A DNA stretch of 43,534 nt from a virus. Shown piece after piece: positions 6,543 to 42,038 of this stretch. A model generated the notes under the pieces. That model saw only the letters and a list, made by a program, of their open reading frames with translations. It made no database searches and was not told the DNA's origin. A program made the position numbers and the translations under genes. The stretch's first letter is position 1, and every line of letters starts with the position of its first letter. The stretch lies in the IMG/VR virus record IMGVR_UViG_3300012944_000012. One strand, written 5' to 3'.

Positions 6543-6669
6543 GGCCGCTAGCCTACCTCCAAAATTCTTGGGGGTGCAAGGGAAATTTTTGGGAGGATTT
6601 CGATAGGCTCTAACCGCCTAGTCCATTTTTAGACTTTCCAAGTATTTTGGTTTGTGCAATTTTGGCGGG
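6543..6669. promoter_or_regulatory. Divergent immunity-switch region with box B palindromes.
   Basis: CCAAAATTCTTGG at 6559..6571, CCAAGTATTTTGG at 6638..6650, and a degenerate GGAAATTTTTGGG at 6581..6593. Confidence 0.6.
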
Positions 6670-7002
6670 ATGGAGATCGAGCCAATCAACGCTGACGAAA
6701 GTAAATTGATCGCCCGCCGCCTGAGAGTGATCCGCACCTTGGTCAGCGGAGAGAACCAAGCGGCGTTTGCGCGGATGCTTGGCATCTTCCCCAACCGCTG
6801 GAACAACTTTGAGCGCGGCTCGCCGCTGACGCTGCGGGTGGCCTTCCTATTGGTCAAGACCGTTGACGGATTGTCCGTGAGCTATATTACCCACGGAAAG
6901 ACCGGCGACCTTCCCAAGGAGCTACGCCGTCAACTGGCGGCCTTGGAAGCCGAGCTATTTCCGCTTTCCTCGTCAAGGTCCAAGCGGTCGCCAAAGACGT
7001 AA
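6670..7002 (+). CDS. XRE-family HTH repressor (CI-like, putative).
   Basis: LIARRLRVIRTLVSGENQAAFARMLGIFPNRWNNFERG is a classic XRE HTH. Divergent from the Cro-like gene. Confidence 0.7.
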   Translation: MEIEPINADESKLIARRLRVIRTLVSGENQAAFARMLGIFPNRWNNFERGSPLTLRVAFLLVKTVDGLSVSYITHGKTGDLPKELRRQLAALEAELFPLSSSRSKRSPKT

Positions 7003-7112
7003 TCGAGCAGCCGGTGCACCTCATCGAGCACCGCTTCCGCATCTTCCCTTTTGGAAAGCGGAAGTTCTACAAATACGCTAAGCGCGCAAATCCGCCGCTC
7101 GATCCCGTTCAT
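6930..7112 (-). CDS. Possible small ORF convergent with the repressor gene.
   Basis: MNGIERRICALSVFVELPLSKREDAEAVLDEVHRLLDYVFGD.... Protein-like but unsupported otherwise; overlaps the repressor 3-prime end. Confidence 0.25.
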   Translation of the reverse strand: MNGIERRICALSVFVELPLSKREDAEAVLDEVHRLLDYVFGDRLDLDEESGNSSASKAAS

Positions 7113-7305
7113 TGGCTTGGCCCTCACACGTCAAGGTTTCCCGCCCCTTTCCCTGCCTGCTACGCTACGCCTGACCGATCCGTCCGGCCACCAAAAATTG
7201 AAAAAATCTGCCGGGAATTATTTTGCCCCAAAATTGTTTCCCGGTCTTGCGTGACCAAATTTTTTGGGTGTAGGCTGGCCCGGTTCGCGCAAGGAGGAAG
7301 CCGCC

Positions 7306-7608
7306 ATGCACGCGACCGTGATCCCGACCAATGATTTCACCTCGCCGCAACCGCTGAAACCGCCCGCCTATGGTGGCCCGGTCCGCGAGGCCATCGGCAG
7401 CGTTGTCGATAACATCGTCGATGACCTGTGCCGCAAGCTCAATACGGTGCGCGCCACGCTCGACAAGATCGAGCAGCAGGCGTTGCAAAGCGCCGCCGAC
7501 GCCAAGGGCACGCTAAGCGATCACGTCGCGGTCTGCGTCAAGCTCAATGACGAAATCCTGCGCATGCAGGCCATGGTCGCCGAATTGCATCAGCAGATGG
7601 GGGAGTGA
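7306..7608 (+). CDS. Hypothetical protein.
   Basis: ATG preceded by the GCAAGGAGGAAG leader, with a box B copy (7255..7267) upstream. Confidence 0.6.
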   Translation: MHATVIPTNDFTSPQPLKPPAYGGPVREAIGSVVDNIVDDLCRKLNTVRATLDKIEQQALQSAADAKGTLSDHVAVCVKLNDEILRMQAMVAELHQQMGE

Positions 7609-7610
7609 CC

Positions 7611-7883
7611 ATGCCCCGCCATGCCTATACCGACCACGAAAAACTGCGCTGCGTCGAACGCGAACTGAAATTCCGCAATCACACCTATCCGCGACGAGTG
7701 GTCGCAGGGCGGATGACGCAACAGCAGGCCGACCGCGAAATCTACCTGATGGAAGATATCGCCGCCGACTACACCGCCAAGGTTCGCGCCGATGAACCCG
7801 GCTTGTTTGAGCCGCGCTCCAAGGCGGACCGGATCGATTATGAACGCGATCACAAAAGGGCGCTGCGCAATGAGGAAGGATAG
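7611..7883 (+). CDS. Hypothetical protein.
   Basis: MPRHAYTDHEKLRCVEREL...; a GGGGAG RBS lies 6 nt upstream. Confidence 0.6.
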   Translation: MPRHAYTDHEKLRCVERELKFRNHTYPRRVVAGRMTQQQADREIYLMEDIAADYTAKVRADEPGLFEPRSKADRIDYERDHKRALRNEEG

Positions 7884-8085
7884 AAAGGTGCTGCGGATTG
7901 CCTACGGCAAAACCGCGTTGGGCCAACTGATTTTCGACTTGGGATTTACCCGGCTACAGGAACGCTATCTTGCCCGCAAGCATGCCGCACCCATCGCCGA
8001 CATCCGCCGGCTGCGCAAGATCGTTCGCAAGGGGTTGCGCGATGGCCGCCAAGAAAATCGAGAACGTCACAGCCGACGAGCTTGA
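7870..8085 (+). CDS. Hypothetical small basic protein.
   Basis: Start at MRKDRKVL overlaps the end of the previous gene. Confidence 0.45.
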   Translation: MRKDRKVLRIAYGKTALGQLIFDLGFTRLQERYLARKHAAPIADIRRLRKIVRKGLRDGRQENRERHSRRA

Positions 8086-8278
8086 TCGCGTGCTGGGCGC
8101 GGCCCGCCAAGCCAGCGACGAGCTATCCGAAATCGTGGTCCGGATCGGCGCGGGATACGGCGATCAGCTTGACGAACCGCTGCGCTATGCCGCGCAATGC
8201 CTTGCCATGCTCCAGCGTCTTGCCGTCGCCACCTCGCATTTTGTCGCGCGGGCGCGGCGGGATAAAGCCTCCAAATAA
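8042..8278 (+). CDS. Hypothetical protein.
   Basis: Start at MAAKKIENVTADEL; good third-position GC. Confidence 0.5.
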   Translation: MAAKKIENVTADELDRVLGAARQASDELSEIVVRIGAGYGDQLDEPLRYAAQCLAMLQRLAVATSHFVARARRDKASK

Positions 8279-8313
8279 TTTGGACATGGGGACAATTCGG
8301 AGGTAACCTCTCT

Positions 8314-8769
8314 ATGCCGATCATCGATCCAAGGGACTTTGAAACGCCAGCCCTGCCGGAAGTGGTTTTGGCAGCGTTCCGGAGCGTGCCGTACATCACG
8401 TTTCCGGGGCTGGCGCGGTTGCTCAACATGCACAAGCGAACGCTCGCCAAGCATGTTGGAAAAACCGATAGGTTGCCGTGGCGGCAAAAGGGAACGGGTC
8501 CGAAAAAGCCCCACCGGGTTTTCACCCTGTCCGATGTCGCGATGATTTGGCATGGCATGACCAAACAGGGGGACCAATGTCAAAATCAGACCTCATCGGC
8601 AAGCGCGTCAAGCGATCCAGAGAAACCTCGCCGTTCATCTATCGTTTTTCTATCGACGGTCACAAATTCCAAGGCACCACCGGCACCACCGACAAGGTCA
8701 CGGCCGAAGCCTATGCCGAGAAAAAGTTCCAAGAGGCGAGCGCCATCGCCGCCAAGGAGCGCCAGCTAA
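8314..8769 (+). CDS. HTH protein, excisionase-like (putative).
   Basis: FPGLARLLNMHKRTLAKHV...VFTLSDVAMIW. The ORF has no stop until 8769, so its low-complexity tail overlaps int by 193 nt. Confidence 0.45.
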   Translation: MPIIDPRDFETPALPEVVLAAFRSVPYITFPGLARLLNMHKRTLAKHVGKTDRLPWRQKGTGPKKPHRVFTLSDVAMIWHGMTKQGDQCQNQTSSASASSDPEKPRRSSIVFLSTVTNSKAPPAPPTRSRPKPMPRKSSKRRAPSPPRSAS

Positions 8770-9734
8770 ACAATGTGCCGATGACGTTCGGCATGGCCTG
8801 CGACAAGTGGCTAACCGGCAAGGCCACCCGGTTACGGGAACAGGGATTGCAGGAACAGGCCGCTTGGCTGCGCAAGCAGATTGGGGACACCAAGCTGTTG
8901 CAGAACATCCGCAAGGGCGACATTTCGGCGATGGTGGCGGCGCGGGCCAAATGTTTGCGGCCGGGCATCGACGGCACGTTTCGGCGGATCGCGGATAGCA
9001 CGGTCAACAAGACCACCCGGCTGATGCAACGCATCTTGAACTATGCCGAGAGCAATCATGACGCCATCGTGAAGCGGTTTGCGTGGAAGGATTTTTTCAT
9101 CAAGCTGCCAAAGGCCCGCCCGGCCAAGCGCGCGGTGTCGCCGGCCAACGAGCAGATTATCTTGGGCACCATTGCCGCCGATTATCTCGACCTCGCCCGC
9201 TTCGCCATCATCGGCGGCTTGCGCGCCTCGGAAAATCTGCTGCTTTGGGACCAAGTCGATTGGGGCAATAACAAGCTGCTGGACGTGGTTGGCAAGGGGC
9301 ACCGCGAGGGCCGCGACGTGCCGATGGGGCCGGCCGAAATGGCGATCCTGCGGGCGCAATACAACCGCACCGACCGGCACCCGACGCACGTCTTTACCTA
9401 TGTTGCCAAAAAGACCGGCAAGATTCCGCGCACGGATCGCTCGACCATCAAGGACAAGCGATATCCGATCACCTATGCGGGCTGGAAATCCGAGTGGGAG
9501 GAAATGCAGCAGGCGACTGGGCTTAAGGTCCGCATCCACGACCTCCGTCACACGGCGGTAACGCGGGCGCTCCAGCGCACCAACGGCAATCTGCCGGCGG
9601 TGCGCGACATGGTTGGACACGCCGACGGCAAAACCACGCTGCTCTATTGGGATGGCGACGAGCAGGCGGTGCGCGATGCCAAGGACATCGGATTTGTCCC
9701 CAAAGCTGTCCCCAAGCGCAAAAAGACCGGCTAA
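8577..9734 (+). CDS. int: Tyrosine integrase.
   Basis: C-terminal HDLRHTAVTR...VRDMVGHADGKTTLLY (R-H-R-Y catalytic pattern). Start at MSKSDL with an AGGGGGA RBS. Confidence 0.9.
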   Translation: MSKSDLIGKRVKRSRETSPFIYRFSIDGHKFQGTTGTTDKVTAEAYAEKKFQEASAIAAKERQLNNVPMTFGMACDKWLTGKATRLREQGLQEQAAWLRKQIGDTKLLQNIRKGDISAMVAARAKCLRPGIDGTFRRIADSTVNKTTRLMQRILNYAESNHDAIVKRFAWKDFFIKLPKARPAKRAVSPANEQIILGTIAADYLDLARFAIIGGLRASENLLLWDQVDWGNNKLLDVVGKGHREGRDVPMGPAEMAILRAQYNRTDRHPTHVFTYVAKKTGKIPRTDRSTIKDKRYPITYAGWKSEWEEMQQATGLKVRIHDLRHTAVTRALQRTNGNLPAVRDMVGHADGKTTLLYWDGDEQAVRDAKDIGFVPKAVPKRKKTG

Positions 9735-9785
9735 GCTATTGAAAACAGGTTGAAATCGGAAAGCGGAGTGTTTTATTTCTACTCC

Positions 9786-9820
9786 GTGGGTTGCAGGTTC
9801 GAATCCTGCTGGGATCGCCA
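9786..9820 (+). other. attP core candidate: 3-prime fragment of a tRNA gene (T-arm plus acceptor 3-prime strand plus CCA).
   Basis: GCAGGTTCGAATCCTGC T-arm (9793..9809), then TGGGATC-G-CCA. No matching 5-prime acceptor strand (GATCCCA) upstream, so it is not a full tRNA. Confidence 0.65.
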
Positions 9821-9821
9821 C

Positions 9822-9849
9822 AAAAGCCCAATAAAATAAGGGCTTTTTG
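9822..9849 (+). terminator. Hairpin plus T-run directly after the tRNA-like fragment.
   Basis: AAGCCC (9824..9829) pairs with GGGCTT (9840..9845), followed by TTT. Confidence 0.55.
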
Positions 9850-9976: not shown

Positions 9977-10195
9977 ATGCCGTCGTCACAGGCCGAACTT
10001 TTCCCCGCCACCGTCACCATCGGCACGCTGGCAATGCTGCCCGAAAAGCAGCCGTGCTATTGCCGGAAGGCGGACAAACACCACCATGTCAACGAGCATG
10101 TGTTCGACGGCCGGCGCTGGATCATGACGTGCTCACAGGCCGGGATCGACCTGATGGCCGAGATCAGCGGCGCCGCTTCTTCTTGCCGGCTTTGA
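9977..10195 (+). CDS. Hypothetical 72-aa protein next to attP.
   Basis: GGGAGA RBS 6 nt upstream; strong third-position GC. Converges with, and overlaps by 32 nt, the XRE gene. Confidence 0.45.
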   Translation: MPSSQAELFPATVTIGTLAMLPEKQPCYCRKADKHHHVNEHVFDGRRWIMTCSQAGIDLMAEISGAASSCRL

Positions 10196-10454
10196 GCGGA
10201 GCCTCGCTCTCCTTGGGGGCCTTCTCCTTGGGAGCCTTGGCGAGGCCAAGCGGACTGCCGTCATCGGCGCACTGAAACCGCAGCCCCGCACCCTCGAACG
10301 CCCGGTTGATCGCCAATAAATTATTGGTATGGGGAACACGCCGTCCGGCTTCGAAATCGCGGATCGTGCTGCTCGATACCTGAGCCTTGCTGCCCAAGTT
10401 CGCTTGCGACCAATTCAGCCACGCGCGGGCCGCTCTGCATTGTTCCGGTGACAT
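10164..10454 (-). CDS. XRE-family HTH regulator with a Lys-rich tail.
   Basis: MSPEQCRAARAWLNWSQANLGSKAQVSSSTIRDFEAGRR matches the HTH_XRE pattern. Confidence 0.8.
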   Translation of the reverse strand: MSPEQCRAARAWLNWSQANLGSKAQVSSSTIRDFEAGRRVPHTNNLLAINRAFEGAGLRFQCADDGSPLGLAKAPKEKAPKESEAPLKAGKKKRRR

Positions 10455-10810
10455 GCCCGCTTTGTAATAACACTTTGATATTTCGTCAAAATTTCACTTT
10501 ATCGCGGATATTACTCATTATCTCACAGGTTGTTTGTTTTCGTTGACACGTCACCGACCAGCCGGCAAACTCAGCCACAACCCAAAGCTTCACCTCTGCA
10601 CCGCAACAGAGACAACCCAAGATTTTCATCCAAAATTTTTTGAGGTCACCAAATTTTTTTGCTAGGTGGTCTTGCTTTCGCCTTACACGCGGAAGCAAAT
10701 TAACCACCTTCCAACAGAAGCGATCCAGAGAGACAACTGGCGCTTACGCAAATCGCCAATGTCTTGCGTTCGTGCCTCGCTGACTCTCACAGCAAGAGGG
10801 GCAATTTCGT

Positions 10811-11314
10811 ATGGCGATCAAGAAACTCACTTTTTCATTTGACGTGCCGCTAACCAGTCTGTTGAGCCTGATCGCGGCCGGGCAAGCGGATTTGCGGATC
10901 GACGTACTGGGTGACGACAAACCGCTATCCGCAAAGGCTCTGGCCGCCGCTGGCATTTCCGGGCTGCTGCCAAGGCCGCACGGCCATACCGACGTAACGC
11001 GCTCGCGCGGCATCGATGCCTCCGGCAATCGAAAAACCGCGAAGGCCGCCATGCTGGAGGGCATGGCGAAGGCGGCGGGCCACACCATGACGCTCGCGCA
11101 GATGCGACCGCTTGTCGCGGCGCTGGGCTTGTCCCCGGCTTCGGCCAACTCGCAAATCAGCTTCATCACCAAGAAGGGATGGGCCGAAACGACAGAGCCC
11201 GGCAAACACCGGCTCACAGAGTCCGGCCTTACGGAGTGCGCGCGGCGCGGCTTCGACGTAATCAAACCCCCAAAGACCAAGAAGGCCGTCAACGGCGCGG
11301 TGCACCATGGGTAA
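10811..11314 (+). CDS. Hypothetical protein with a possible C-terminal winged helix.
   Basis: 167 aa, CAAGAGGGGCAA leader; first gene of the plus-strand operon. Confidence 0.6.
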   Translation: MAIKKLTFSFDVPLTSLLSLIAAGQADLRIDVLGDDKPLSAKALAAAGISGLLPRPHGHTDVTRSRGIDASGNRKTAKAAMLEGMAKAAGHTMTLAQMRPLVAALGLSPASANSQISFITKKGWAETTEPGKHRLTESGLTECARRGFDVIKPPKTKKAVNGAVHHG

Positions 11315-11657
11315 GAGCAACGGTCACAAGCGCAAGGGCGCGCTGGCGCTGTACCGCTCTTACAATTTCGTTGACAAAGACCCGGTGATTGATCGCATCC
11401 GGACCATCGTCCAAGACGAGGGGCTTTCCTACAAGGACATCCACGTCATCAGCGGCGTCTCGACCGCGACGCTGACCAACTGGTTCGACGGCGAAACGAG
11501 GCGACCGCAATATGCCACCGTCGCCGCCGTCACCTCCTCGCTGGGCTACAAGCAGGAGTTCGTCAAAAGCCAGAAAGATCGATTTCGAGCGCGAGATCGT
11601 CAAAGCACAGCGCGAGATCGAGGCGGCGGCCAAGGGCCGATAACACAGGGGGACTAA
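11307..11657 (+). CDS. HTH DNA-binding protein (putative); the 3-prime end may be frame-disrupted.
   Basis: IHVISGVSTATLTNWFDGETRRPQ is HTH-like. After about 11575 the +1 frame has much better third-position GC (see findings). Confidence 0.6.
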   Translation: MGKSNGHKRKGALALYRSYNFVDKDPVIDRIRTIVQDEGLSYKDIHVISGVSTATLTNWFDGETRRPQYATVAAVTSSLGYKQEFVKSQKDRFRARDRQSTARDRGGGQGPITQGD

Positions 11658-11661
11658 GCAG

Positions 11662-12066
11662 ATGGCACCAAGGAAAAAGAGCGTGAAAAAACACAACGCG
11701 AACCAGCGCGGCACCAAGGACAGTGACGGGATCATTGGCAACCGGATACGCGCCTACCGGATCGAGCGCGGCCTGTCGCAAGAGCAATTGGGGATCGCGC
11801 TGAAAGTTTCGTTCCAGCAAATCCAGAAATACGAAAAAGGCACCAACCGGCTGTCGGCGACGCGCTTGATCGAGACGGCGAAGATCATGGGCGTCACCCC
11901 GCACGATTTGCTGGGCTGGAACGGTGCCGGCGTCAAGCTTGGCAAGGCCATCGACGTTGAAAGCTTCAAGCTGGCGCAGGAGTTCTGCGGTCTGCGCGAT
12001 GGCTTGAAACCGGCGTTCCGCAATCTGATCGAAACGGTGATGAAGGAAAAAACAACGCGCGCCTGA
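11662..12066 (+). CDS. XRE-family HTH regulator.
   Basis: IGNRIRAYRIERGLSQEQLGIALKVSFQQIQKYEKGTNRLSATRL is a canonical XRE HTH. Confidence 0.85.
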   Translation: MAPRKKSVKKHNANQRGTKDSDGIIGNRIRAYRIERGLSQEQLGIALKVSFQQIQKYEKGTNRLSATRLIETAKIMGVTPHDLLGWNGAGVKLGKAIDVESFKLAQEFCGLRDGLKPAFRNLIETVMKEKTTRA

Positions 12067-12096
12067 CGACGGCGAGGGGGAGACAGGCAGTGAGGC

Positions 12097-12741
12097 ATGA
12101 GCGAGCTAAATCAAAGCATCCGCCACATTGAGCGGCCGGACCGCATCAAGCGCCTGAAAATTTCGGACCGGGGGTTTCCGGTGCCGTGGTTCGTCGCGTG
12201 GCTTGATGGCGTGGCGGACTTCCGCGTGATCGCGCCGGGCAAGATGACACAGGCCCACAACCGGCATCGATGCTGGATTTGCGGCGGACCGCTGGGGCGC
12301 TATCTCGCCTTCACCATCGGGCCAATGTGCGCCATTAACCGGACATCGTCCGAGCCGCCGTCACACACGGATTGCGCCGAGTATGCCGCCAAGGCGTGCC
12401 CGTTCCTGAGCAAGCCCAACATGCGCCGCAACGAAAAGGAGTTGCCCGAGCATGGCGAGATCGCGGGAACGGCGATCATGCACAATCCCGGCGTTGCACT
12501 GGTTTACGTTACCCATAGTTATCGGCCGATCAGCGACGGCCGGGGTGGCGTTCTGTTCGAACTCGGCGAGCCAGTCAGCGCCTCGTTTTTTTGCGAGAGC
12601 CGGCCCGCTACCCGTGACGAGATCATGCAATCCATCGATAAGGGTTTGCCCTACCTCCGCGAGGTTGCCGCCAAGGAAAACGCACTCGACGAACTGCAAT
12701 GCTATATCGACCGCGCCCTCAAACTCTTGCCGGCCGCCTGA
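12097..12741 (+). CDS. Cys/His-rich (zinc-binding?) protein of unknown function; intact paralog of 42793..43375.
   Basis: RGFPVPWF...CWICGGPL...HTDCAEYAAKACPFL; alignable by eye with the second copy. Confidence 0.75.
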   Translation: MSELNQSIRHIERPDRIKRLKISDRGFPVPWFVAWLDGVADFRVIAPGKMTQAHNRHRCWICGGPLGRYLAFTIGPMCAINRTSSEPPSHTDCAEYAAKACPFLSKPNMRRNEKELPEHGEIAGTAIMHNPGVALVYVTHSYRPISDGRGGVLFELGEPVSASFFCESRPATRDEIMQSIDKGLPYLREVAAKENALDELQCYIDRALKLLPAA

Positions 12742-12742
12742 C

Positions 12743-13030
12743 ATGTTGATGATCTTCACATGGACCTGCATCCTGCTGACCAACGCCATGCTGGTTTTCA
12801 TGCTGCTGCGGCTGCGCCAGCATCGGCGCGAGTGGCTTGAGTTGGAGGTCGCGTATCAACTGCTGTTGCAAAACCACGAAGCCCTGATGCCGATCCATCA
12901 AATGTTGCAAGAGGCCATGCAACACACCGAACCGGGAGAAAGCTCATGCGTGACCATCGAGCTTCAACACCTCCAGAAAGCGCCCGACTCGCCGCCGACC
13001 ACGTCAACACCCTCCAGACGGCTGCACTAG
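12743..13030 (+). CDS. Small protein with an N-terminal TM helix.
   Basis: MLMIFTWTCILLTNAMLVFMLLRL...; the start was chosen by eye. Confidence 0.45.
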   Translation: MLMIFTWTCILLTNAMLVFMLLRLRQHRREWLELEVAYQLLLQNHEALMPIHQMLQEAMQHTEPGESSCVTIELQHLQKAPDSPPTTSTPSRRLH

Positions 13031-13254
13031 CGCGCGACGTGCTGTCGATCTGGACGGTCTATGACCACCCGAGCGATTTCCCGCACAGCTATGTCGCGCG
13101 GCGCGCCGAGGTGAACCGTCATGGCGTGCAGCCGACCGCCGATGTCATGGTGGGCGAATTGTCGATCATCCGCGCCAGCTTCCTGCAAGCCGGGCTGACC
13201 TGTCTGCCGCGCAGCGAGGACGACGAGGCGCATATTGTTGAGTGCTGGCTATGA
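12946..13254 (+). CDS. Hypothetical protein.
   Basis: 102-aa ORF (WTVYDHPSDFPHSYVARR...). Overlaps the previous ORF by 85 nt, so one of the two starts is probably wrong. Confidence 0.5.
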   Translation: MRDHRASTPPESARLAADHVNTLQTAALARDVLSIWTVYDHPSDFPHSYVARRAEVNRHGVQPTADVMVGELSIIRASFLQAGLTCLPRSEDDEAHIVECWL

Positions 13255-13586
13255 GTTTTGTGCTGCGACAAATTCACCCGCCCGGCAAATCGGCCCTCGC
13301 CGACGAAGCAACGACGGTTGCGCTGGCGCTTGCACTGGGCGAAGGCGGCCCGATCATGGGCGATTATCTGGAGTGGTCCGATCCCAACGCGCGCCACGGT
13401 TTCGGCGATGACCGATGGACCGATGACCTCGCCAAAGCGCAGCGCTTCCCCTCGTTTGAAGCCGCGATGGCGTGTTGGATGGCGCAAAGCACCAAGCGAC
13501 CATTGCGCGACGACGGCAAGCCGAACCGGCCGATGACGGCCTACAGCATCACGGTGGAACGGGTGCCCGAGGGAGCAAAAACATGA
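13251..13586 (+). CDS. Hypothetical protein.
   Basis: ATGA overlap with the upstream stop. Confidence 0.55.
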   Translation: MSFVLRQIHPPGKSALADEATTVALALALGEGGPIMGDYLEWSDPNARHGFGDDRWTDDLAKAQRFPSFEAAMACWMAQSTKRPLRDDGKPNRPMTAYSITVERVPEGAKT

Positions 13587-13849
13587 ACGACGATTTCATC
13601 TTTGAGGTCGGCAACCCGACACATACCGTTGAACTGGCCCGGCTGATCGAGGAAATCATCCGGCACGCCCGCAATGCGGCAACGCCGCGCGTTCGCTTTG
13701 CGTTGCTGCTATGGGACGATGGCCATGACGAGATGCAGGCCATCGTTTCCAACGACCCGGAAGTCGAACGCGTCGCCGATATGCTGGACGACGCCAAGGA
13801 GCGGATCAGCACCCCCGATGCCACTCTGTACGAAAGCGGTCACGCATGA
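13583..13849 (+). CDS. Hypothetical acidic protein.
   Basis: ATGA coupling; start at MNDDFIFEV. Confidence 0.6.
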   Translation: MNDDFIFEVGNPTHTVELARLIEEIIRHARNAATPRVRFALLLWDDGHDEMQAIVSNDPEVERVADMLDDAKERISTPDATLYESGHA

Positions 13850-14705: not shown

Positions 14706-14718
14706 CCAAATAATTTGG
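14706..14718. promoter_or_regulatory. Box B palindrome upstream of the peptide gene.
   Basis: CCAAATAATTTGG, identical to the copies at 8271 and 39326. Confidence 0.45.
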
Positions 14719-14988: not shown

Positions 14989-15707
14989 CATGCCGGATAC
15001 ACTTGCTCGCCGTTGACCGTGATCGACAACGACACGCCCGCCGGGATCGAAATGTCGATCAACGCCTCCGTCTCCGGTTTGGGCGGCGCGACGGTCGCCG
15101 GGCTGATCCATGTCAATAGCTGATCGTCGGAACCGTTGAAGCGGTCGAGATCGACCGCGCCGCCGTCGATGCCGTCCACCGTCCCGCTTTCCGAGTATTG
15201 CCAGAGCGTCCATTGCGGATAGGTGTTGGTCGGCCATGTCGGCGTCCCCGTGGTGTACTGCGCCAGCCAGAGATCGGTGTTGTCGGCCAGCATGGTGTCG
15301 CGCGTATCGCCCAACTGCTCTTTCAAGAGATGGCCGCTATAGACCGTGATCTGCAAATCCCGGTCATCGTCCATCAAGGCTTGCACCGCCGCCTTGAGAT
15401 CGTCCAGCGTGCAGCCTTGTTCCTCATAGTCAATCACCACGCGCTCGCCGGGGACCGGCTCGACGGTTTTGAGGAAGAACGCGATTTGGTCCGTGGCGCT
15501 GACGCCCGATGACAGCCAGTGATAACAGCAGCACTTGATGCCCGCCTTGGTCGCCGCGACGTAGTTGGTGGCGCGGTTGGGATCGACATAGCCGGTGCCT
15601 TCGGTGGCCTTCATGATGCAGGCGATCACGCCAGCGGCCTTGACCTTGTCAAAATCGGGAAAACCCTGCCAATGACTCAGGTCCAAACATTTTGGATGGT
15701 CACTCAT
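14988..15707 (-). CDS. GH25 muramidase (endolysin).
   Basis: CLDLSHWQGFPDFDKVKAAGV...IMKATEGTGYVD matches the glycoside hydrolase family 25 pattern. Start at MSDHPK. Confidence 0.9.
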   Translation of the reverse strand: MSDHPKCLDLSHWQGFPDFDKVKAAGVIACIMKATEGTGYVDPNRATNYVAATKAGIKCCCYHWLSSGVSATDQIAFFLKTVEPVPGERVVIDYEEQGCTLDDLKAAVQALMDDDRDLQITVYSGHLLKEQLGDTRDTMLADNTDLWLAQYTTGTPTWPTNTYPQWTLWQYSESGTVDGIDGGAVDLDRFNGSDDQLLTWISPATVAPPKPETEALIDISIPAGVSLSITVNGEQVYPA

Positions 15708-33776: not shown

Positions 33777-35224
33777 TACAGCAGCATCGGGTCAGCCGAT
33801 GTCACGCGCTCAATCGCCTTGTAGTCGCGCTTCGGCAGGGTGATGGTTTTCACCTTCGGCATCCGTCCTTTGATCATGTGATCGAGCAACTGGCCGATCA
33901 ATCCCAGCGCGTCCACTTGGTCATCGTGCACACCGGCCGGGAAATGCAGCAATTCAGACCTGAAATCCGCCAGCCACGGAGCGCGTGACGGCACATAGAG
34001 CCCACTCAAGGACATGCGGCCTTGGATCGAGCGGGCGCGCACCGCCTTGTCGCCGCGCGTCGGAAACATTTCGCGCTCACACCACGCCCGGCGTTCTCTT
34101 TGCCTTCGGTCCAGAAACGGCCCGATGCCGGCGCGGATTTGGCCCTGTTCTTCCGCCCATGCGAACGGCTTGTATTTCAACACCAGATCGCAGAACGCAT
34201 CGATCCAGATGTCGCTCGTGTTTTGCTGGCGCCACACCTCCAAGAGATACATCCGTTCCTCCGGATCGAGCCCGACCACGGCATGCACGGTGTAGTCGCC
34301 GCCGTCCTTGGTCACCGCATAGTCCGAGCCGCCGTAACATCGCAGGGTTTTCAAATCCGGGATGTGGTTGACCGGATGCAGCCACTCGTCCTTGAAATAA
34401 TCGCCTTCATCCGGCGTCGGTTCTTGCTGATAGAGGGCTGACCACACCCGTGCCGGCGTGTTCACTTTCAAATCGGCGAGTTGCTGGCCGTAGCCGTAGT
34501 CGTCGTCGTTCCACAAAAATTCGCCAACCGGCCGTCCCAGCGGATCATCGTCCTTGGCTTCCGCCGGCAACGACAACACGTCCCAATGCTGGAAATTGAT
34601 CGCCCTGCCCGCGAGGTCGTCCTCATGCCAGCGGGTCTGGATCAGCATTTGCCGGGCGCGCGGCACCAGACGCGGTCTGAAATCGTTGAGATACCAATCC
34701 CACAACCGATCCCGAACCAGAGAGCTATCGGCGTCTTGACGCGAGCGGATCGGGTCATCGATCAAGCCATACAACGCCCGGAATCCGGCGATGCCGGTCA
34801 AGGCCCCGGCCGCCAGATACTCGCCGCCCTGTTCCAGTCCCCATCGTCCGGCCGCCTGATTGTCCGCCGTCAATTTGATGTTCAAGCTAGGCGCGTGATC
34901 GCCGACCAGATTTCGCACCCTGCGGCCCCAGCGTTCCGCAAGTTCGGTGGTATGCGACGCCGCAAGGATCATCGCGGCCGGGTCTTGCGCGAACAGCCAC
35001 GCCGGAAACAGGATCGAGGCATAAGTCGATTTCGCAGAGCCCGGCGGCATGAACACCGCCAGCCGTTCGATCTCGCCACGGGCAAGGGCTTCGAGATACT
35101 GGATCAGCAGCCGGTGATGACGGGCCGGGATATAGCCGTTTTCCAGACACCACTCGGTCAACGAGCCACGCAGCCGTCGCCGCCGCAGCACTTCTTGTGC
35201 GGCTTGGTCCGGCGTGAGGTGCAT
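33776..35224 (-). CDS. terL: Terminase large subunit.
   Basis: Walker A-like FMPPGSAKST. C-terminal nuclease region GGSDYAV...DDQVDAL. 482 aa. Confidence 0.9.
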   Translation of the reverse strand: MHLTPDQAAQEVLRRRRLRGSLTEWCLENGYIPARHHRLLIQYLEALARGEIERLAVFMPPGSAKSTYASILFPAWLFAQDPAAMILAASHTTELAERWGRRVRNLVGDHAPSLNIKLTADNQAAGRWGLEQGGEYLAAGALTGIAGFRALYGLIDDPIRSRQDADSSLVRDRLWDWYLNDFRPRLVPRARQMLIQTRWHEDDLAGRAINFQHWDVLSLPAEAKDDDPLGRPVGEFLWNDDDYGYGQQLADLKVNTPARVWSALYQQEPTPDEGDYFKDEWLHPVNHIPDLKTLRCYGGSDYAVTKDGGDYTVHAVVGLDPEERMYLLEVWRQQNTSDIWIDAFCDLVLKYKPFAWAEEQGQIRAGIGPFLDRRQRERRAWCEREMFPTRGDKAVRARSIQGRMSLSGLYVPSRAPWLADFRSELLHFPAGVHDDQVDALGLIGQLLDHMIKGRMPKVKTITLPKRDYKAIERVTSADPMLL

Positions 35225-37008: not shown

Positions 37009-37040
37009 CCAAAGATTTTGGGGCTGTCCAGAAAATTTGG
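37009..37040. promoter_or_regulatory. Two box B copies in the divergent region between the late operon and 37109..37393.
   Basis: CCAAAGATTTTGG at 37009..37021 and CCAGAAAATTTGG at 37028..37040 (one mismatch). Confidence 0.45.
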
Positions 37041-37629: not shown

Positions 37630-37795
37630 CAGCTTCATACTGCGCGCATTGCGGACACGGCACCGCGACAGCGGTTACGGGCTTCGTAACAGTTACGGAT
37701 GGCGTAACAGGTTTTGTTACGGGCTGCGTAACAACAGGCTCGCACAACCGGCTCCAATGGCGTTCACCGCACGTCCGGCATTTCGGAGCGTCCAT
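37598..37795 (-). CDS. Small CxxCGERH-motif protein with a VT(x)P(V)T repeat.
   Basis: MDAPKCRTCGERHWSRLCEPVVTQPVTKPVTPSVTVTKPVTAV...CPQC.... Confidence 0.5.
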   Translation of the reverse strand: MDAPKCRTCGERHWSRLCEPVVTQPVTKPVTPSVTVTKPVTAVAVPCPQCAQYEAEIKRLKNQAA

Positions 37796-37820
37796 CAAAG
37801 ATTTTCCAGCGTTGGCGGAA

Positions 37821-37940
37821 ATTTTTGGGTGAGAGGGTGTGAAGATGAAGATTTGGGAAAGGGGACGGGTGTTTTTTTGTGGGGATGGCAAGGGGTGTGA
37901 GAGAAGGTTTGGGGAGAGTGGCGGGTTTATAGGGGGTGTT
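37821..37940. other. Extreme strand-asymmetric tract: G-rich on the plus strand, C-rich on the minus-sense transcript.
   Basis: By my count 58 G and only 3 C in 120 nt, with about 10 runs of 3 or more G. Confidence 0.9.
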
Positions 37941-38049
37941 GACCGAAAGCATGCTTGCCCTCCGAGAAATTTTCCCCCTCCGGTGCCCCGCGCCGCGTCG
38001 CATCCCCGCCCGCCCGCGCGATGTCGCAGAAACCCAATGAAATCAGGCA

Positions 38050-38571
38050 TTACTTGCTCGTTGCAACAGGCTTACGTTGGTCGGTCTGTTGCGTTTCATC
38101 GGGCTTGTGCTCGATTGTCAGCGGGCTACTCGCTGCAATGGCGAGTAATTGCTCGTCACTCAACTGTCTTACGTTCACGTTGACCGTGGTTTCAGTCTGA
38201 TACATATCGCGCCACTCGTCCGGATCGGCGTTCTTCAAAGCGAAGATGGCTGCTGTGACGCCAACCCCTATTTTTGTAGTCAGCAGCTTACGTTCCAGCG
38301 CGCGCAGCCGCGCTGCACGCGCAATTTGTACTGCATGGCGAAAGTCCGCGTGACGATCAATCCACTCATACACCGCGTCTTTGCTAACCCTGATCTCCCC
38401 GGCAAAGGCCGTCAGACTATAGCCCTCGCCCATGATCTCTATCACGCTGATGCAATAGGCCGGATCATAGAGCGTTGGCCGTCCGAAGATGTAGCCATAA
38501 GGCTTTGGCTTCGCCCTAAACGGCCGGGGCGAACCGAACCGCTTCGCTGGCACAGTTTGACACTCTCTCAC
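38050..38571 (-). CDS. terS: Terminase small subunit.
   Basis: GRPTLYDPAY...GYSLTAFAGEIRVSKDAVYEWIDRHADF...AAIFALKNADPDEWRD is the classic small-terminase HTH pattern. GTG start. Confidence 0.8.
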   Translation of the reverse strand: MRECQTVPAKRFGSPRPFRAKPKPYGYIFGRPTLYDPAYCISVIEIMGEGYSLTAFAGEIRVSKDAVYEWIDRHADFRHAVQIARAARLRALERKLLTTKIGVGVTAAIFALKNADPDEWRDMYQTETTVNVNVRQLSDEQLLAIAASSPLTIEHKPDETQQTDQRKPVATSK

Positions 38572-38714: not shown

Positions 38715-38724
38715 CATTGCCTCT

Positions 38725-38753
38725 TTACAGACTAGGCCATTTTGGCCTATGTT
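38725..38753 (+). promoter_or_regulatory. Promoter-like element with a perfect box A in the spacer.
   Basis: TTACAG, 17-nt spacer, TATGTT. TAGGCCATTTTGGCCTA at 38733..38749. Confidence 0.5.
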
Positions 38754-39315: not shown

Positions 39316-39344
39316 TTGACCTAACCCAAATAATTTGGTTATGT
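39316..39344 (+). promoter_or_regulatory. Sigma-70-like promoter carrying box A and box B.
   Basis: TTGACC, 17-nt spacer, TTATGT. Box A at 39307..39323 overlaps the -35; box B at 39326..39338 fills the spacer. Confidence 0.55.
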
Positions 39345-39374
39345 CCCCTCACGAACAACGCAAGGGGATTTTTA

Positions 39375-39668
39375 ATGTTCGATCACAACGCCATGAACGA
39401 GCTAAAGCATGTCGCCGCTGACCGCTATCAGCGCAACGGTTGCGGCGGCGCTCACAAGGTGCATGCAACATCCGTCGCCTATGACAAGGCGCACGGCTAC
39501 GGCGAGATGACGCCGTTTCGGCAAGCGGTCTATCGCGCGCGCATGCAATACAAGGTGGCTTGCGACAACGCGCGGAGCGATTTCTCTTTCGCTCCGGTCG
39601 CCTTCGATCTCGCCAAGGAAGAAAGGCGGGAGGCCGCGCGCTATGCGCTCGCATCCATCCCTTTCTAA
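39375..39668 (+). CDS. Hypothetical protein.
   Basis: 97 aa with a CAAGGGGA leader. Confidence 0.6.
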   Translation: MFDHNAMNELKHVAADRYQRNGCGGAHKVHATSVAYDKAHGYGEMTPFRQAVYRARMQYKVACDNARSDFSFAPVAFDLAKEERREAARYALASIPF

Positions 39669-40171: not shown

Positions 40172-40201
40172 TTGACCGCTAGGCCATTTTGGCAGTATGC
40201 T
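40172..40201 (+). promoter_or_regulatory. Orphan promoter-like element with no ORF downstream.
   Basis: TTGACC, 18-nt spacer, TATGCT. Box A copies at 40163..40179 and 40180..40196. Confidence 0.45.
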
Positions 40202-40488
40202 GAAAGATTGCGGTTGCGCCGAACCGGCCAAAACGCGGTATCAAATAACCGCCAATAGCAAGCCCGCCCATGCGTTATTTCCACAAGCCCGCTACCTCAC
40301 TAACCAAAAAATTTGGGCGCACGGGCGAGGCTGCTAATCTGTCAACCAAATTATTTGGGACATACCCCAATTATTTTGGGTTCACTCACTTGACAGCTAG
40401 GCCATTTCGACCTAGCCGCGACGCGGCCTGATTTGCAACTATATTGCGCCAACATCCAAATATTTTGGTGAAAATGTCGGCTCCATGA

Positions 40489-40562
40489 GAGAGTCACCCA
40501 TGCGTTATTTTTCGGTTTTGATACCAGAGTAAGGCGGAAATGTTCGCCGCCCGGTGACTCTC
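40489..40562. other. Candidate structured RNA/DNA element inside the ORF-free tract.
   Basis: A 10-bp perfect stem: GAGAGTCACC (40489..40498) pairs with GGTGACTCTC (40553..40562). It encloses an inner GGCGG/CCGCC hairpin. Confidence 0.3.
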
Positions 40563-40695
40563 CTATTGTGTCAAGTCCTTGCAGCCAAAATATTTGGGTT
40601 GATGTCGCGGCGCAATCGACGCAGCCGTACCCGCACCGATTTGCGCGCTGTAACATTTTGTGACCAAATTTTTTGGATATCCCCTCTAGGCCGTA

Positions 40696-40724
40696 TTGAC
40701 CTATAGGCCATTTTGGCCTATCAC
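40696..40724 (+). promoter_or_regulatory. Sigma-70-like promoter of ardC with tandem box A copies.
   Basis: TTGACC, 17-nt spacer, TATCAC. Box A at 40687..40703 and a perfect TAGGCCATTTTGGCCTA at 40704..40720. Confidence 0.55.
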
Positions 40725-40757: not shown

Positions 40758-41633
40758 ATGGCAAACCTTTACACTGATGTCACCGCCCGCATCCTCGCCG
40801 ATCTCGAAAACGGCACCGCGCCATGGGTCAAGCCATGGTCCGCGACGCCGGGTAACAACGTGCCGCACAACGCCGCGACCGGCCGGCCCTACTCCGGTTG
40901 CAACGTGGTGCTGTTGTGGCTGTCGCACGGCCGCTTCGCCTCGCCGCGCTTCATGACCTTCAAACAAGCCAAGGAACTGGGCGGCAATGTCCGCAAGGGC
41001 GAGCACGGCTTTACCGTGTATTTCGTCAAGCCGATGACCGGCAAACCCAAGGACGGCGAAACCGAGGGCAAGGCGTTCACCATGCTGCGCGCCTATACCG
41101 TGTTCAATGTCGATCAGTGCGAAAATCTGCCGGCGAAAATCCTCAACGCGGAGCCGGTCAAGCCGCGCCACACTGACGAGCGCGACGCCACCATTGACGA
41201 GTTCATTGCCGCCAGCGGCTGCGATTTCCGCGCCGATGTCGGCGGTGACAGGGCCTATTACAGCCCGGCCGGGGACTTCGTCGCCATGCCGGCGTTCGCC
41301 GCGTTCCGCTCCGCTGCCAATTACTACGCGGTGGCGTTTCATGAGATGGGCCATTGGACCGGCCACGCCTCGCGCTTGGATCGCGATCTAAAGAACCGTT
41401 TCGGAACCCGCGCCTATGCAGCGGAGGAACTGGTGGCCGAACTGACCGCCGCGTTCTTGTGCGCCGAGTTCAGCATCGACGGCGAGATACGCCATGCCGC
41501 TTACATCAAATCATGGATCGAACTATTGAAGGACGACGCCCGCGCGTTCTTTACCGCCGCCAGCGCCGCGCAAAAAGCCGCCAGCTTCCTGCGGGATCGC
41601 GTGCTCGCCGAGCCGGTGGCGCTCGCCGCCTGA
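40758..41633 (+). CDS. ardC: ArdC-type antirestriction protein (ssDNA-binding N-domain plus zincin metalloprotease C-domain).
   Basis: N-terminus ARILADLENGTAPWVKPW...YSGCNVVLLW (DUF1738-like). C-terminus AFHEMGHWTGH, an HExxH motif typical of ArdC. Confidence 0.9.
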   Translation: MANLYTDVTARILADLENGTAPWVKPWSATPGNNVPHNAATGRPYSGCNVVLLWLSHGRFASPRFMTFKQAKELGGNVRKGEHGFTVYFVKPMTGKPKDGETEGKAFTMLRAYTVFNVDQCENLPAKILNAEPVKPRHTDERDATIDEFIAASGCDFRADVGGDRAYYSPAGDFVAMPAFAAFRSAANYYAVAFHEMGHWTGHASRLDRDLKNRFGTRAYAAEELVAELTAAFLCAEFSIDGEIRHAAYIKSWIELLKDDARAFFTAASAAQKAASFLRDRVLAEPVALAA

Positions 41634-41641
41634 TCTTAAAG

Positions 41642-41669
41642 AGCCCGGCCATGGTGCCGGGCTTTTTTA
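41642..41669 (+). terminator. Rho-independent terminator.
   Basis: AGCCCGGC...GCCGGGCT followed by TTTTT. Confidence 0.8.
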
Positions 41670-41693
41670 TTGGATGATTTCGACTAGGCCATA

Positions 41694-41722
41694 TTGACAT
41701 GCCCCAAATTATTTGGATATAA
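41694..41722 (+). promoter_or_regulatory. Sigma-70-like promoter with box A and box B.
   Basis: TTGACA, 17-nt spacer, ATATAA. Box A at 41685..41701; box B at 41704..41716. Confidence 0.6.
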
Positions 41723-41757
41723 CAGGACATCAACACAGCGAAGCAAGGGGAACCAAA

Positions 41758-41970
41758 ATGTACGATCTAGCCCATGAAAACCAAGCACCCGGCCGGTGCG
41801 GCAAGTGTCGCGGGACCGGCGTCTATGGCTGGGGCGCTTGTGTCAACGGCAAGATGCAAAATTCCGGAACCTGCTTTTCGTGCCGTGGCACCGGCCAACA
41901 GGATACCCGCCAAATCAGGCGCAACCATACCTATAACCGTTACAAGATCGCGGCGATTGCCCGGCTCTGA
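41758..41970 (+). CDS. 70-aa protein with two DnaJ-type CxxCxGxG zinc-finger motifs.
   Basis: CGKCRGTG and CFSCRGTG motifs; conserved leader upstream. Confidence 0.65.
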   Translation: MYDLAHENQAPGRCGKCRGTGVYGWGACVNGKMQNSGTCFSCRGTGQQDTRQIRRNHTYNRYKIAAIARL

Positions 41971-41977
41971 CTCAACC

Positions 41978-42000
41978 GCCCCGGCGCAAGCCGGGGCTTT
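41978..42000 (+). terminator. Rho-independent terminator.
   Basis: GCCCCGGC-gcaa-GCCGGGGC followed by TTT. Confidence 0.7.
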
Positions 42001-42009
42001 CCAATTATT

Positions 42010-42038
42010 TTGGCGACACGGCCAAAAAGTGCTAGTAT
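42010..42038 (+). promoter_or_regulatory. Weak promoter-like element overlapping a box B copy.
   Basis: TTGGCG, 17-nt spacer, TAGTAT. Box B at 42001..42013. Confidence 0.35.

Follow-up and report, generated by a model that had tools for sequence, protein, structure and literature searches.

Box B, a dispersed 13-bp palindrome, as a putative operator of the genetic switch in a temperate soil phage

What reads a short palindrome that occurs in about 20 copies between the genes of a single temperate phage? The window, i.e. the whole stretch of DNA analysed here, is a complete 43.5-kb genome of a temperate soil phage with a P22-like portal, the host of which is probably an alphaproteobacterium. 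The palindrome, denoted Box B, spans 13 bp and has the consensus [T]CCAAAT-W-ATTTGG[A]. Exact matches to CCAAWWWWWTTGG (CCAA-W5-TTGG) were found at 13 positions (7255, 8271, 14104, 14706, 39326, 40304, 40346, 40367, 40456, 40585, 40664, 41704 and 42001), as compared to 0.00 expected from 100 shuffles of the window. The pattern CCAANNNNNTTGG returned 22 matches in the window (0.95 expected) and added to the exact set four copies whose interior contains a single G/C (6559, 6638, 14083 and 37009). Thus, all 17 start positions of the original prediction are correct. The variant GGAAATTTTTGGG at 6581 and 37817 and the 17-mer GTGACCAAATTTTTTGG at 7251 and 40660 are likewise exact. The near-copies at 37028 and 10630 are present as well, albeit the third one starts at 10649 rather than 10648.

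The placement of these sites is strongly biased. As called here, 18% of the genome is non-coding, and 20 of the 22 best weight-matrix sites lie in, or overlap, this fraction, making the preference for DNA outside genes extreme. The earlier wording “always intergenic” is nevertheless too strict, as two loose CCAA-N5-TTGG matches with four of five interior positions A/T fall inside genes, one within the GH25 endolysin gene (15683..15695, CCAAACATTTTGG) and one within a tail gene (23129-23141). These represent either chance matches or unused sites. Three further in-gene matches with GC-rich interiors (8447, 9251 and 29774) are probably due to chance. The half-site spacing is uniform, with 19 N5 sites versus one N7 match in the window.

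Box B occupies the spacer of both divergent promoters in the presumed switch region. The gene to the left (6306..6542, minus strand) encodes a Cro-like, YdaS-type HTH protein of 78 aa with a weak match to PF15943, and it is the first gene of a leftward operon continuing with DnaA_C-like (5843-6277, adjoining the switch), Gam-like, Erf and HNH genes. The gene to the right (6670..7002, plus strand) encodes a CI-like repressor of 110 aa, consisting of a five-helix 434/P22-C2-like HTH domain and a C-terminal helix. Its product matches phrog_8 weakly, its family profile matches HipB and the 434 repressor in the PDB (E about 1e-4), and the AF2 model (pLDDT 81.7) superposes on the N-terminal DNA-binding domains of P22 C2 and 434 with an rmsd of about 1.9 Å. 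Among 5.8e9 proteins, this rare family forms 8 clusters. From gene order, the CI-like protein would be the lysogeny-maintenance repressor; counting against this assignment, the true immunity region could instead be that of a second HTH pair in the window, 10164-10454(-) and 11662-12066(+).

On the Cro side, pattern match and promoter reading place Box B (6559..6571) in a minus-strand promoter composed of TTGCAC (6579-6574), N2, Box B, N3 and TAGGCT (6555-6550), followed by 7 nt to the ATG at 6542. The same architecture is found in L052, L053, L054, L058 and L122. On the CI side, Box B (6638..6650) is located 4 nt upstream of the -10 element TGCAAT (6655-6660), which ends 9 nt before the ATG of 6670-7002, so that the mRNA would have little or no leader. 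L054, L058 and L056 conserve TGCAAT-N9-ATG. The 6638 site is proposed to serve in autoregulation of the CI-like gene. The two-promoter layout is kept in every close relative and is present in L052, L053, L054, L058 and L122. A GGAAATTTTTGGG copy (6581..6593) sits just upstream of the leftward -35, 22 bp from 6559, and its low weight-matrix score indicates that only one half-site is good. The switch region holds two full Box B sites and one half-site.

Across the window, the link to promoters is evident for part of the sites. Under fixed criteria, 5/20 Box B sites fall inside the spacer of a recognisable sigma-70-type promoter, as compared to 3.3% of random intergenic positions (p about 4e-4), and some four more fit by eye, so that about half can be placed on a recognisable promoter. 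Box B at 7255..7267 occupies the spacer of TTGCGT (7247-7252)-N18-TAGGCT (7271-7276), upstream of gene 7306-7608, and its orthologue in L058 (at 8706) reads TTGACC-CT-BoxB-GTG-TAGGCT. The next copy (8271..8283) extends over the end of 7982-8278, including its stop codon, and precedes the integrase gene (8577-9734). Two near-copies, each ending in TTTG, follow at 10630-10642 and 10649-10661; the latter lies in the spacer of TTGAGG (10640-10645)-N17-TAGGTG (10663-10668), facing the 10811-14070 operon, and near-copies occur at the equivalent place in L053 (2522/2539), L054 (7652) and L058 (11659). Further rightward, a pair with starts 21 bp apart (14083-14095 and 14104-14116) precedes gene 14154-14546, and a single site (14706..14718) precedes a gene for a small secreted Cys-rich peptide (14799-14927) that looks like a moron.

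The putative regulon also seems to take in the promoter positioned to drive the terminase and structural operon, a point not made in the original prediction. Here, a full site (37009-37021) and a near-copy (37028-37040) coincide with the minus-strand promoter TGGACA (37030-37025)-N16-TAGGCT (37008-37003), with Box B in its spacer, facing the genes from 36914 onward for large terminase, portal, capsid, tail and lysis. The second GGAAATTTTTGGG half-site variant (37817..37829) lies in apparently non-coding DNA adjoining the small terminase gene. Among the early cassettes, Box B at 39326..39338 fills the spacer of TTGACC (39316-39321)-N18-TATGTC (39340-39345), the promoter of gene 39375-39668, and Box B at 41704..41716 that of TTGACA (41694-41699)-N18-TATAAC (41718-41723), the promoter of a zinc-ribbon-like gene (41758-41970). 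A final copy (42001..42013), upstream of gene 42065-42274, was assigned to a promoter by eye, its right half overlapping the -35 of TTGGCG-N17-TAGTAT.

These layouts bear on the possibility that Box B is itself a promoter element, the alternative named in the original prediction. Such an element might be a spacer, extended -10 or UP-like element, an intrinsically bent A-tract, or a sequence read by a sigma factor of the phage. The interior is an A/T tract, and at 14104, 39326 and 41704 the TTGG arm provides a TG two to three bases ahead of the -10; indeed, 14104 abuts TATCAT, forming the extended -10 TGGTATCAT. The proposed TTGAC(C/A) spacer architecture is borne out at 39326 and 41704, whereas 14104 has no TTGAC at the -35. 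Moreover, the dyad symmetry of Box B is perfect, its distance to the -10 varies between 0 and 4 nt, the -35 is overlapped at 42001, and many copies come without hexamers, none being obvious around 8271, 14706 and most of the six-site array described below. Conversely, four cassette promoters graded strong (~38724, 40172, 40695 and 42456) are free of Box B, contrary to the idea that it marks essentially every early promoter; they carry another palindrome, Box A (TAGGCCA-N3-TGGCCTA), which also overlaps the -35 of the 39326 and 41704 promoters. The proteins scanned included no sigma factor. Given, in addition, the covariation with HTH proteins and the Bradyrhizobium phages devoid of the motif (see below), a promoter element is a poor fit and highly improbable.

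Six perfect sites (40304, 40346, 40367, 40456, 40585 and 40664; 40304..40676) form an array upstream of ardC (40758-41633). It is part of a conserved non-coding region composed of two repeats of about 170 bp. L034 and L058 retain this region, the lengths of their indels not being multiples of 3. The conserved blocks persist in these relatives despite about 68% identity, the region contains no conserved ORF and has no Rfam match, and between the 40172 promoter and ardC there is no terminator-like site save one weak match overlapping Box B (40355-40370). A separate or additional role of the array, be it as replication origin, partition-like iterons, repressor titration sink or roadblock in the ardC leader, is conceivable on these grounds, if doubtful: no replication initiator was identified, and elsewhere the same motif is plainly found at promoters.

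Comparison across phages provides the closest indication of what binds Box B. In all 11 of 11 distinct loci with a homologue carrying the helix P-[NST]-[RT]-W-[NGY]-N, CCAA-N5-TTGG precedes the gene by at most about 200 bp. CCAA-N7-TTGG is found in the L056/L190 subclade and GCATATTATATGC-type palindromes in the ‘ISQGQLSRYEKG’ clade, and where homologues have other recognition helices, the palindromes differ and Box B is missing; beyond the Box B clade, this covariation sample is small and phylogenetically clustered. Box B was absent from the complete genome of Bradyrhizobium phage ppBeUSDA76-1 and from the 15.6-kb region of ppBdUSDA122-1, the switches of which carry other palindromes. The motif thus travels with 6670-7002 homologues and shifts when the recognition helix shifts. 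A scan for Box B pairs by DNA pattern alone, covering 185,579 genomes with 120 loci fetched, gave mostly chance matches in AT-rich genomes. In 2/120 loci, both alphaproteobacterial, a homologue of a switch protein is encoded less than 1 kb from the sites: L122 (Candidatus Tokpelaia, 40% GC) with both the CI-like and the Cro-like gene beside Box B, and L082 (65% GC) with the CI-like gene only and Box B at three places.

The covariation with the CI-like recognition helix argues against a site for a host factor as well as against a promoter element. A global regulator or nucleoid protein of the host, exploited by phages, would be in line with an AT-rich motif at promoters of a GC-rich genome, as is common for host-factor sites. 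Still, Box B accompanies CI-like homologues and phage switch proteins across loci and hosts from 40% to 65% GC, and its spacing or sequence changes when these proteins diverge. The Bradyrhizobium phages, which infect alphaproteobacteria as well, lack it, and the genome-wide scan, in which host genomes were covered in part, revealed no clade of bacteria in which Box B pairs recur outside switch loci. We consider a host factor very unlikely.

A different phage protein might bind instead, namely the Cro-like protein alone, the DnaA_C-like protein (5843-6277) or the HTH pair 10164-10454/11662-12066. Box B would then serve, for instance, to shut off early genes or as an initiator site, and not as a lysogenic operator. 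The Cro-like recognition region covaries with Box B equally well (‘VWNW’ in phages with Box B, ‘ISNA/ISNG’ in those of Bradyrhizobium), its gene being absent from a single locus, L082. The DnaA_C-like gene adjoins the switch in the window, L052, L053, L054, L058 and L190, and 11662-12066 homologues exist in most relatives. Within its 8 kb, however, L082 keeps Box B and the CI-like gene with no detectable Cro-like gene, window-type DnaA_C-like gene or 11662-12066 homologue, and the CI-like gene encodes the only window protein common to all Box B loci. In the loci compared, Box B is always found immediately upstream of this gene. DnaA domain IV proteins, moreover, normally read asymmetric 9-mers rather than 13-bp palindromes. 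Binding by one of these proteins in place of the CI-like protein is therefore regarded as rather unlikely. As the Cro-like protein covaries with Box B too, both switch proteins may bind, and the Cro-like protein is probably a second ligand.

The reading we prefer, to which we assign a probability of about three in four, is that Box B is a putative operator of the phage’s own genetic switch, bound by a dimer of the 6670-7002 protein. Each palindrome would accommodate one CI-like dimer, with one recognition helix (P-N-R-W-N-N-F-E) per CCAA half-site, and the divergently encoded Cro-like protein would very probably act on the same sites. The proposed action is repression rather than activation: where Box B takes up the -35/-10 spacer or reaches into a hexamer (6559, 6638, 7255, 10649, 14104, 37009, 39326, 41704 and 42001), bound protein would block RNA polymerase. 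Local occupancy may be raised by neighbouring sites at distances of 17-22 bp and, ahead of ardC, by the six-site array. The starts of paired sites are 17-36 bp apart across relatives, and with a spacing that is not constant, cooperative binding on one helix face would be no more than a possibility. The targets would be the leftward recombination operon, the promoter of the CI-like gene itself, the operon extending to integrase, the 10.6-kb rightward operon, genes resembling morons, the promoter that faces the terminase and structural genes, and a number of early cassettes. With sites on nearly all transcription units, one small protein could silence almost the whole prophage directly, with no need for a cascade that starts from a single OL/OR pair. 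Switch placement, co-travel and covariation favour the dispersed repressor regulon of the original prediction over such a pair, and a dispersed-operator regulon is most likely what these sequences encode.

The regulatory logic is classical, whereas the CI-like family and its Box B site have not previously been described. Lambdoid switches (434 cI/cro, P22 c2/cro and lambda cI/cro) share the divergent HTH genes, the palindromic operators over both promoters and the five-helix lambda-repressor-like fold (~1.9 Å to P22 C2 and 434). The half-site of 434 is ACAA/TTGT, which CCAA/TTGG resembles, and the lambda PRM repressor mRNA is leaderless, as the CI-like mRNA appears to be. In contrast, the CI-like protein comprises only 110 aa and has no S24 autopeptidase (autocleavage) domain, and in place of a clear tripartite OR the switch offers two full sites plus a half-site. 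Instead of being confined to OL/OR, some 20 putative operators are distributed among at least 10 intergenic regions, that of the structural-operon promoter being one of them.

Dispersed operators on scattered promoters of temperate phages are also known for P1 C1 and the Streptomyces phiC31 c repressor. P1 operators are asymmetric 17-mers, and the phiC31 sites are conserved inverted repeats that accompany conserved early promoters. Neither the proteins nor the site sequences are related to those described here, and no homology of the switch proteins to either repressor was detected. Mycobacteriophage L5/Bxb1 gp71-type repressors provide global silencing from numerous 13-bp stoperators genome-wide (PMC9283540, PMC6550527), similar to the single immunity repressor with numerous dispersed 13-bp sites proposed here. 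Stoperators are asymmetric, bound by monomers, and, within transcription units, stop elongation in one orientation (PMC9283540). Box B differs in being a perfect palindrome located between genes or in the spacers of promoters, and its proposed binder, an Xre-type HTH protein, is unrelated.

The C repressor of Sinorhizobium phage 16-3, likewise an alphaproteobacterial temperate phage, acts on xCAA-Nn-TTGx palindromes, a likeness based on the sites. In work ascribed to Papp et al., it is reportedly a 434-like repressor tolerating variable half-site spacing (ACAA-N4-TTGT and ACAA-N6-TTGT). One 16-3 protein binds both spacings, whereas each phage here uses one, N7 being that of the L056/L190 subclade. 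The combination of Box A and Box B, two short palindromes on many modular promoters, resembles the design of the IncP KorA/KorB global regulon, although that is a plasmid system and no KorA, KorB or ParB homologue was seen in the window phage. Presumably, the resemblance extends to the ardC-type anti-restriction gene flanked by individual terminators.

The 13-bp palindrome CCAA-N5-TTGG (Box B) occurs in the window far above chance, as the original prediction had estimated: CCAAWWWWWTTGG gave 13 matches against 0.00 expected, and CCAANNNNNTTGG gave 22 against 0.95. All 17 exact copies of that prediction were recovered at their coordinates, as were the variant GGAAATTTTTGGG (at 6581 and 37817) and the 17-mer repeated at 7251 and 40660; the near-copies are likewise present, albeit the third starts at 10649 and not at 10648. 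The Box B sites are perfect palindromes, and several have a second copy or near-copy 19–22 bp away (6559/6581, 10630/10649, 14083/14104, 37009/37028 and 40346/40367). Counting only sites with an AT-rich interior, the window holds 19 of the N5 form and one of the form CCAA-N7-TTGG. A symmetric weight matrix derived from 13 perfect sites returned 22 sites at or above the cut-off of 15.5 bits, which occupy no fewer than 10 different intergenic regions in the interval from 6.5 to 42 kb. According to our own gene calls, 20 of these lie in or overlap the non-coding 18% of the genome. The earlier description of the motif as always intergenic is thus nearly true, the in-gene exceptions being 15683 (endolysin gene), 32938 (portal gene) and a weaker match at 23129.

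Several of the sites are embedded in promoter-like sequence. A strict promoter definition (−35 matching in at least four of six positions; −10 with A2 and T6) missed nearly all promoters recognized by eye, and the criteria were relaxed after this version and a matched control was added. Under these fixed criteria, 5 of 20 Box B sites fill the spacer of a sigma-70-type promoter, compared with 3.3% of random intergenic positions (p ~ 4e-4). On the minus strand, TTGCAC-N2-BoxB-N3-TAGGCT at 6559 (N18 spacer) faces the Cro-like gene, and TGGACA-N3-BoxB-TAGGCT at 37009 faces 36914 onward, in the direction of the genes for terminase, portal, capsid, tail and lysis. On the plus strand, TTGCGT-N2-BoxB-N3-TAGGCT at 7255 faces gene 7306–7608, TTGACC-N4-BoxB-N1-TATGTC at 39326 faces gene 39375–39668, and TTGACA-N4-BoxB-N1-TATAAC at 41704 faces gene 41758–41970. 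Four more sites were fitted by eye: 10649 (TTGAGG-N17-TAGGTG), 14104 (extended −10, TGGTATCAT), 42001, where Box B overlaps a −35, and 6638, which lies 4 nt upstream of TGCAAT, the conserved −10 of the CI-like gene.

The copies at 6559 and 6638 overlap the two divergent promoters of a predicted immunity switch, on the Cro side and the CI side, respectively. The switch consists of two HTH genes, 6306–6542 (minus; Cro-like) and 6670–7002 (plus; CI-like), separated by 127 bp, and the same divergent pair is found in the related loci L052, L053, L054, L056, L058 and L122 as well as in two Bradyrhizobium phages. In four phages (the window, L054, L056 and L058), precisely 9 nt separate the end of the CI-like −10 (6655–6660 in the window) from the ATG. 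On the opposite side the −10 (within 6546–6555 in the window) ends 7–9 nt before the Cro-like start codon in three phages, reading TAGGCT in the window and L052 and TATGCT in L054. Because the −10 elements lie so close to the start codons, both switch promoters appear to give leaderless or nearly leaderless mRNAs. As it faces the integrase, away from the Gam/Erf early operon, 6670–7002 is on gene order a putative lysogeny-maintenance repressor. A second pair of HTH genes is located at 10164–10454 (minus) and 11662–12066 (plus).

The 110-aa CI-like protein belongs to a rare family, represented by 8 clusters among 5.8 billion proteins. It has no Pfam match at E ≤ 0.01; the family profile, searched against the PDB, retrieved HipB and 434 repressor (E 5e-5 to 2e-4). 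An AF2 model built from an 8-sequence alignment (pLDDT 81.7) comprises an HTH domain and one C-terminal helix only, and superposes best on P22 C2 and 434 repressor (TM-target 0.77–0.80, rmsd 1.9 Å), with weak Foldseek E-values of about 0.2. Profile and model thus agree on a lambda-repressor-like (Xre) fold of the DNA-binding domain. Unlike lambdoid repressors, the protein carries no C-terminal LexA/S24-type autocleavage domain, the basis of RecA-dependent induction, in either the Pfam scan or the model. The switch otherwise resembles the cI/cro pairs of the 434/P22 type. The half-site of 434 is ACAA, to which the Box B half-site CCAA is similar. When viral contigs were searched by exact words for the single CI-like protein, no relatives emerged; this reflects a limit of that method, since tblastn later found homologues in L052 and L053.

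To identify which protein reads Box B, loci were gathered by contig look-ups, DNA walking, tblastn against phage records and a single scan of metagenomes that used the alignment of the family. In addition, 185,579 genomes were scanned without reference to protein for two Box B copies 4–25 bp apart, and 120 loci were fetched and checked for homologues of the window proteins. Most of the matches listed are chance occurrences in AT-rich genomes. Nine Box B copies within 8 kb of a Clostridia MAG (L176, JAFSHF010000026.1, positions 1–650) belong to an unrelated 29-bp tandem repeat (CCAATTTATTTGGACTGACTCTTCTTAGT). Still, at least two alphaproteobacterial loci among the 120 have a switch-protein homologue less than 1 kb from the Box B pair: L122 (Candidatus Tokpelaia, 40% GC), with CI-like and Cro-like genes, and L082 (65% GC), which has just the CI-like gene. 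The sequence TTGACAAT-CCAAAATATTTGG-ATTA is common to the two loci.

Across the assembled loci the palindrome covaries with the recognition helix of the CI-like protein. The helix P-[NST]-[RT]-W-[NGY]-N (PNRWNNFE in the window) occurs in 11 distinct loci (the window, L052/L183, L053/L187/L188, L054, L058, L082, L122, L184, L185, L186 and L189), each with CCAA-N5(A/T)-TTGG upstream of the CI-like gene, at a distance of up to about 200 bp. The same helix, followed by a one-residue deletion after helix 4, is found in L056 and L190, which have CCAA-N7-TTGG at equivalent positions. Eight loci with the helix ISQGQLSRYEKG carry GCATATTATATGC or ATGCAT-N5-ATGCAT and lack Box B. Finally, the helix is APQW or QQAW in the Bradyrhizobium phages ppBeUSDA76-1 and ppBdUSDA122-1 and PQAL in the metagenomic L194; these have other palindromes, and Box B is absent from the complete ppBeUSDA76-1 (43 kb), the 15.6-kb region of ppBdUSDA122-1 and L194. 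This is the pattern expected for a repressor family and its operators. It fits poorly with the alternative readings of Box B, as the site of a host factor or as an element of promoters in general. The original proposal of a dispersed operator for the switch repressor is hence favoured by positional conservation as well as by protein–operator covariation.

The corresponding region of the Cro-like protein covaries likewise (VWNW in Box B phages versus ISNA/ISNG in the Bradyrhizobium phages), and CI-like and Cro-like proteins probably both read the same sites, as in lambdoid phages. The two are separated by L082 only, which has no detectable Cro-like gene. In this locus a DnaA_C-type gene is directly transcribed from the predicted Box B promoter. 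The DnaA_C-like protein was considered as a Box B binder and rejected as the main candidate. The N7 sites (L056: 9811, 9852, 9934, 10651, 17421 and 18629; L190: 732) read CCAAAAT-W-ATTTTGG and are confined to the separate L056/L190 subclade. With the recognition helix unaltered, they may represent a natural change in half-site spacing. The split between N5 and N7 is reminiscent of the C repressor of rhizobiophage 16-3, which has operators of two geometries (cited in PMC3694467); here the geometries differ between phages, in 16-3 they occur within one.

A single operator dispersed over a genome recalls P1 C1, phiC31 c and the stoperators of L5/Bxb1, and as for the L5-type global repressors more than 10 repressor sites are predicted across the genome. 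The stoperators of L5/Bxb1 are asymmetric, monomer-bound and intragenic, and halt elongation in an orientation-dependent manner (PMC9283540, PMC6550527), whereas Box B is palindromic, intergenic or overlapping intergenic DNA in the large majority of cases, and in several cases placed in promoter spacers. A literature search found no phage operator of the CCAA/TTGG type. The novelty lies in the family of the protein, in its operator and in how far the regulon reaches; the principle is already known, and the general picture of temperate phage control is unchanged. The result is a concrete, testable operator–repressor pair for a rare and uncharacterised small Xre-type family in soil alphaproteobacterial phages, for which, to our knowledge, almost no regulatory circuits besides that of phage 16-3 have been described. 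Moreover, the natural series of proteins with N5, N7 and unrelated palindromes offers a system for the evolution of immunity specificity and half-site spacing.

The claim that Box B covers essentially every early promoter proved too broad. The 38.7–42.5-kb region is made of cassettes in which a terminator, a promoter and a common 5'UTR (GCAAGGGGAACCAAAATG) recur, and contains a second palindrome, TAGGCCA-N3-TGGCCTA (Box A; 12 matches versus about 1 expected). Perfect copies lie at 38733–38749 and 40704–40720, and copies with 1–3 mismatches at 39307, 40163, 40180, 40398, 40687, 41685, 42448 and 42465. Box A covers the −35 in every promoter of the region, TTGAC being its degenerate right arm. 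The spacers of the promoters at 39316 and 41694 contain Box B, whereas those at ~38724, 40172, 40695 and 42456 hold a second Box A; as Box A replaces Box B in these four, a second regulator is implied. Among 51 loci retrieved with a Box A 15-mer from viral contigs, only L034, L049 and L031 are related, the others being chance matches; in L031 (IMGVR_UViG_3300036832_001719) the A-A' promoter is present in three copies. Cassettes such as TTGACC-N4-BoxB-(−10) could serve as repressible promoters in alphaproteobacteria. The terminators between 38.7 and 43 kb are near-identical (AGCCCGGC...GCCGGGCTTTTT) and are followed by small genes and ardC, a layout resembling a plasmid leading region.

Upstream of ardC (40758–41633; anti-restriction), the 480 non-coding bp of 40200–40680 contain six perfect Box B copies. 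The region consists of two imperfect repeats of ~170 bp each, with the blocks ATGCGTTATTT, GGGCGAGnCTGCTA and TGTCAA, and is kept in two other lineages, L034 and L058. The region may act as an origin, as a sink for the repressor or, in the ardC leader, as an array of roadblocks to elongation, or it may harbour sRNA genes. These elements can be combined into a joint reading. By analogy with plasmid Kor regulons, control may be global and exerted through two operators. The 110-aa protein alone may exert direct control over all operons, among them the 22-kb structural/lysis operon, and a dedicated late activator would then not exist. The six operators before ardC (as sink, roadblock or origin) may time the first minutes of infection, and a changed dimer geometry may have moved N5 to N7 within the same protein clade, which, if true, would create new immunity types with the recognition helix unchanged. 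That all four parts hold together is unlikely.

In essence, the window is the entire genome of a phage. Its CI-like protein is identical to one on a 43,552-bp metagenomic contig, and in one relative the last 140 bp of the window adjoin its first 800 bp in the alignment. Two stretches of the window, 10 kb and 2.9 kb long, had no megablast match among 50,697 deposited phage records, and hence no annotated close relative. Since relatives carry GcrA or belong to alphaproteobacterial MAGs, and Bradyrhizobium prophages are the nearest deposited relatives of both switch proteins, the host is probably an alphaproteobacterium. Minus-strand genes encode a P22-like portal (31827–33776), the large terminase (33776–35224; assigned by adjacency to the portal, not by family scan) and an Sf6-like small terminase (38050–38571); other products include a GH25 endolysin, a serine recombinase, Gam-like and Erf proteins. 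Directly downstream of the tyrosine integrase gene (8577–9734), a tRNA 3'-end fragment (GGGTTGCAGGTTCGAATCCTGCTGGGATCGCCA) at 9775–9822 probably forms the attP core, which would direct the phage into a tRNA gene. ARAGORN detected no complete tRNA, and an Rfam scan at gathering thresholds gave no hit. The gene at 14799–14927 encodes a 42-aa secreted cysteine-rich peptide (MKHLLLALSAVALLATAIPAKAGCNGTYHCTQGYNGKQVCGC) with a homologue in L054; as it is preceded by a terminator and has a Box B of its own upstream, it looks like a moron. Next to the gene for the small terminase, apparently non-coding DNA at 37674–37733 holds a hairpin unit of 18 bp, GTTACGG-N4-CGTAACA, three times in tandem; with the low-complexity, G/T-rich stretch that comes after it (37830–37950), it makes up a candidate pac or origin region.
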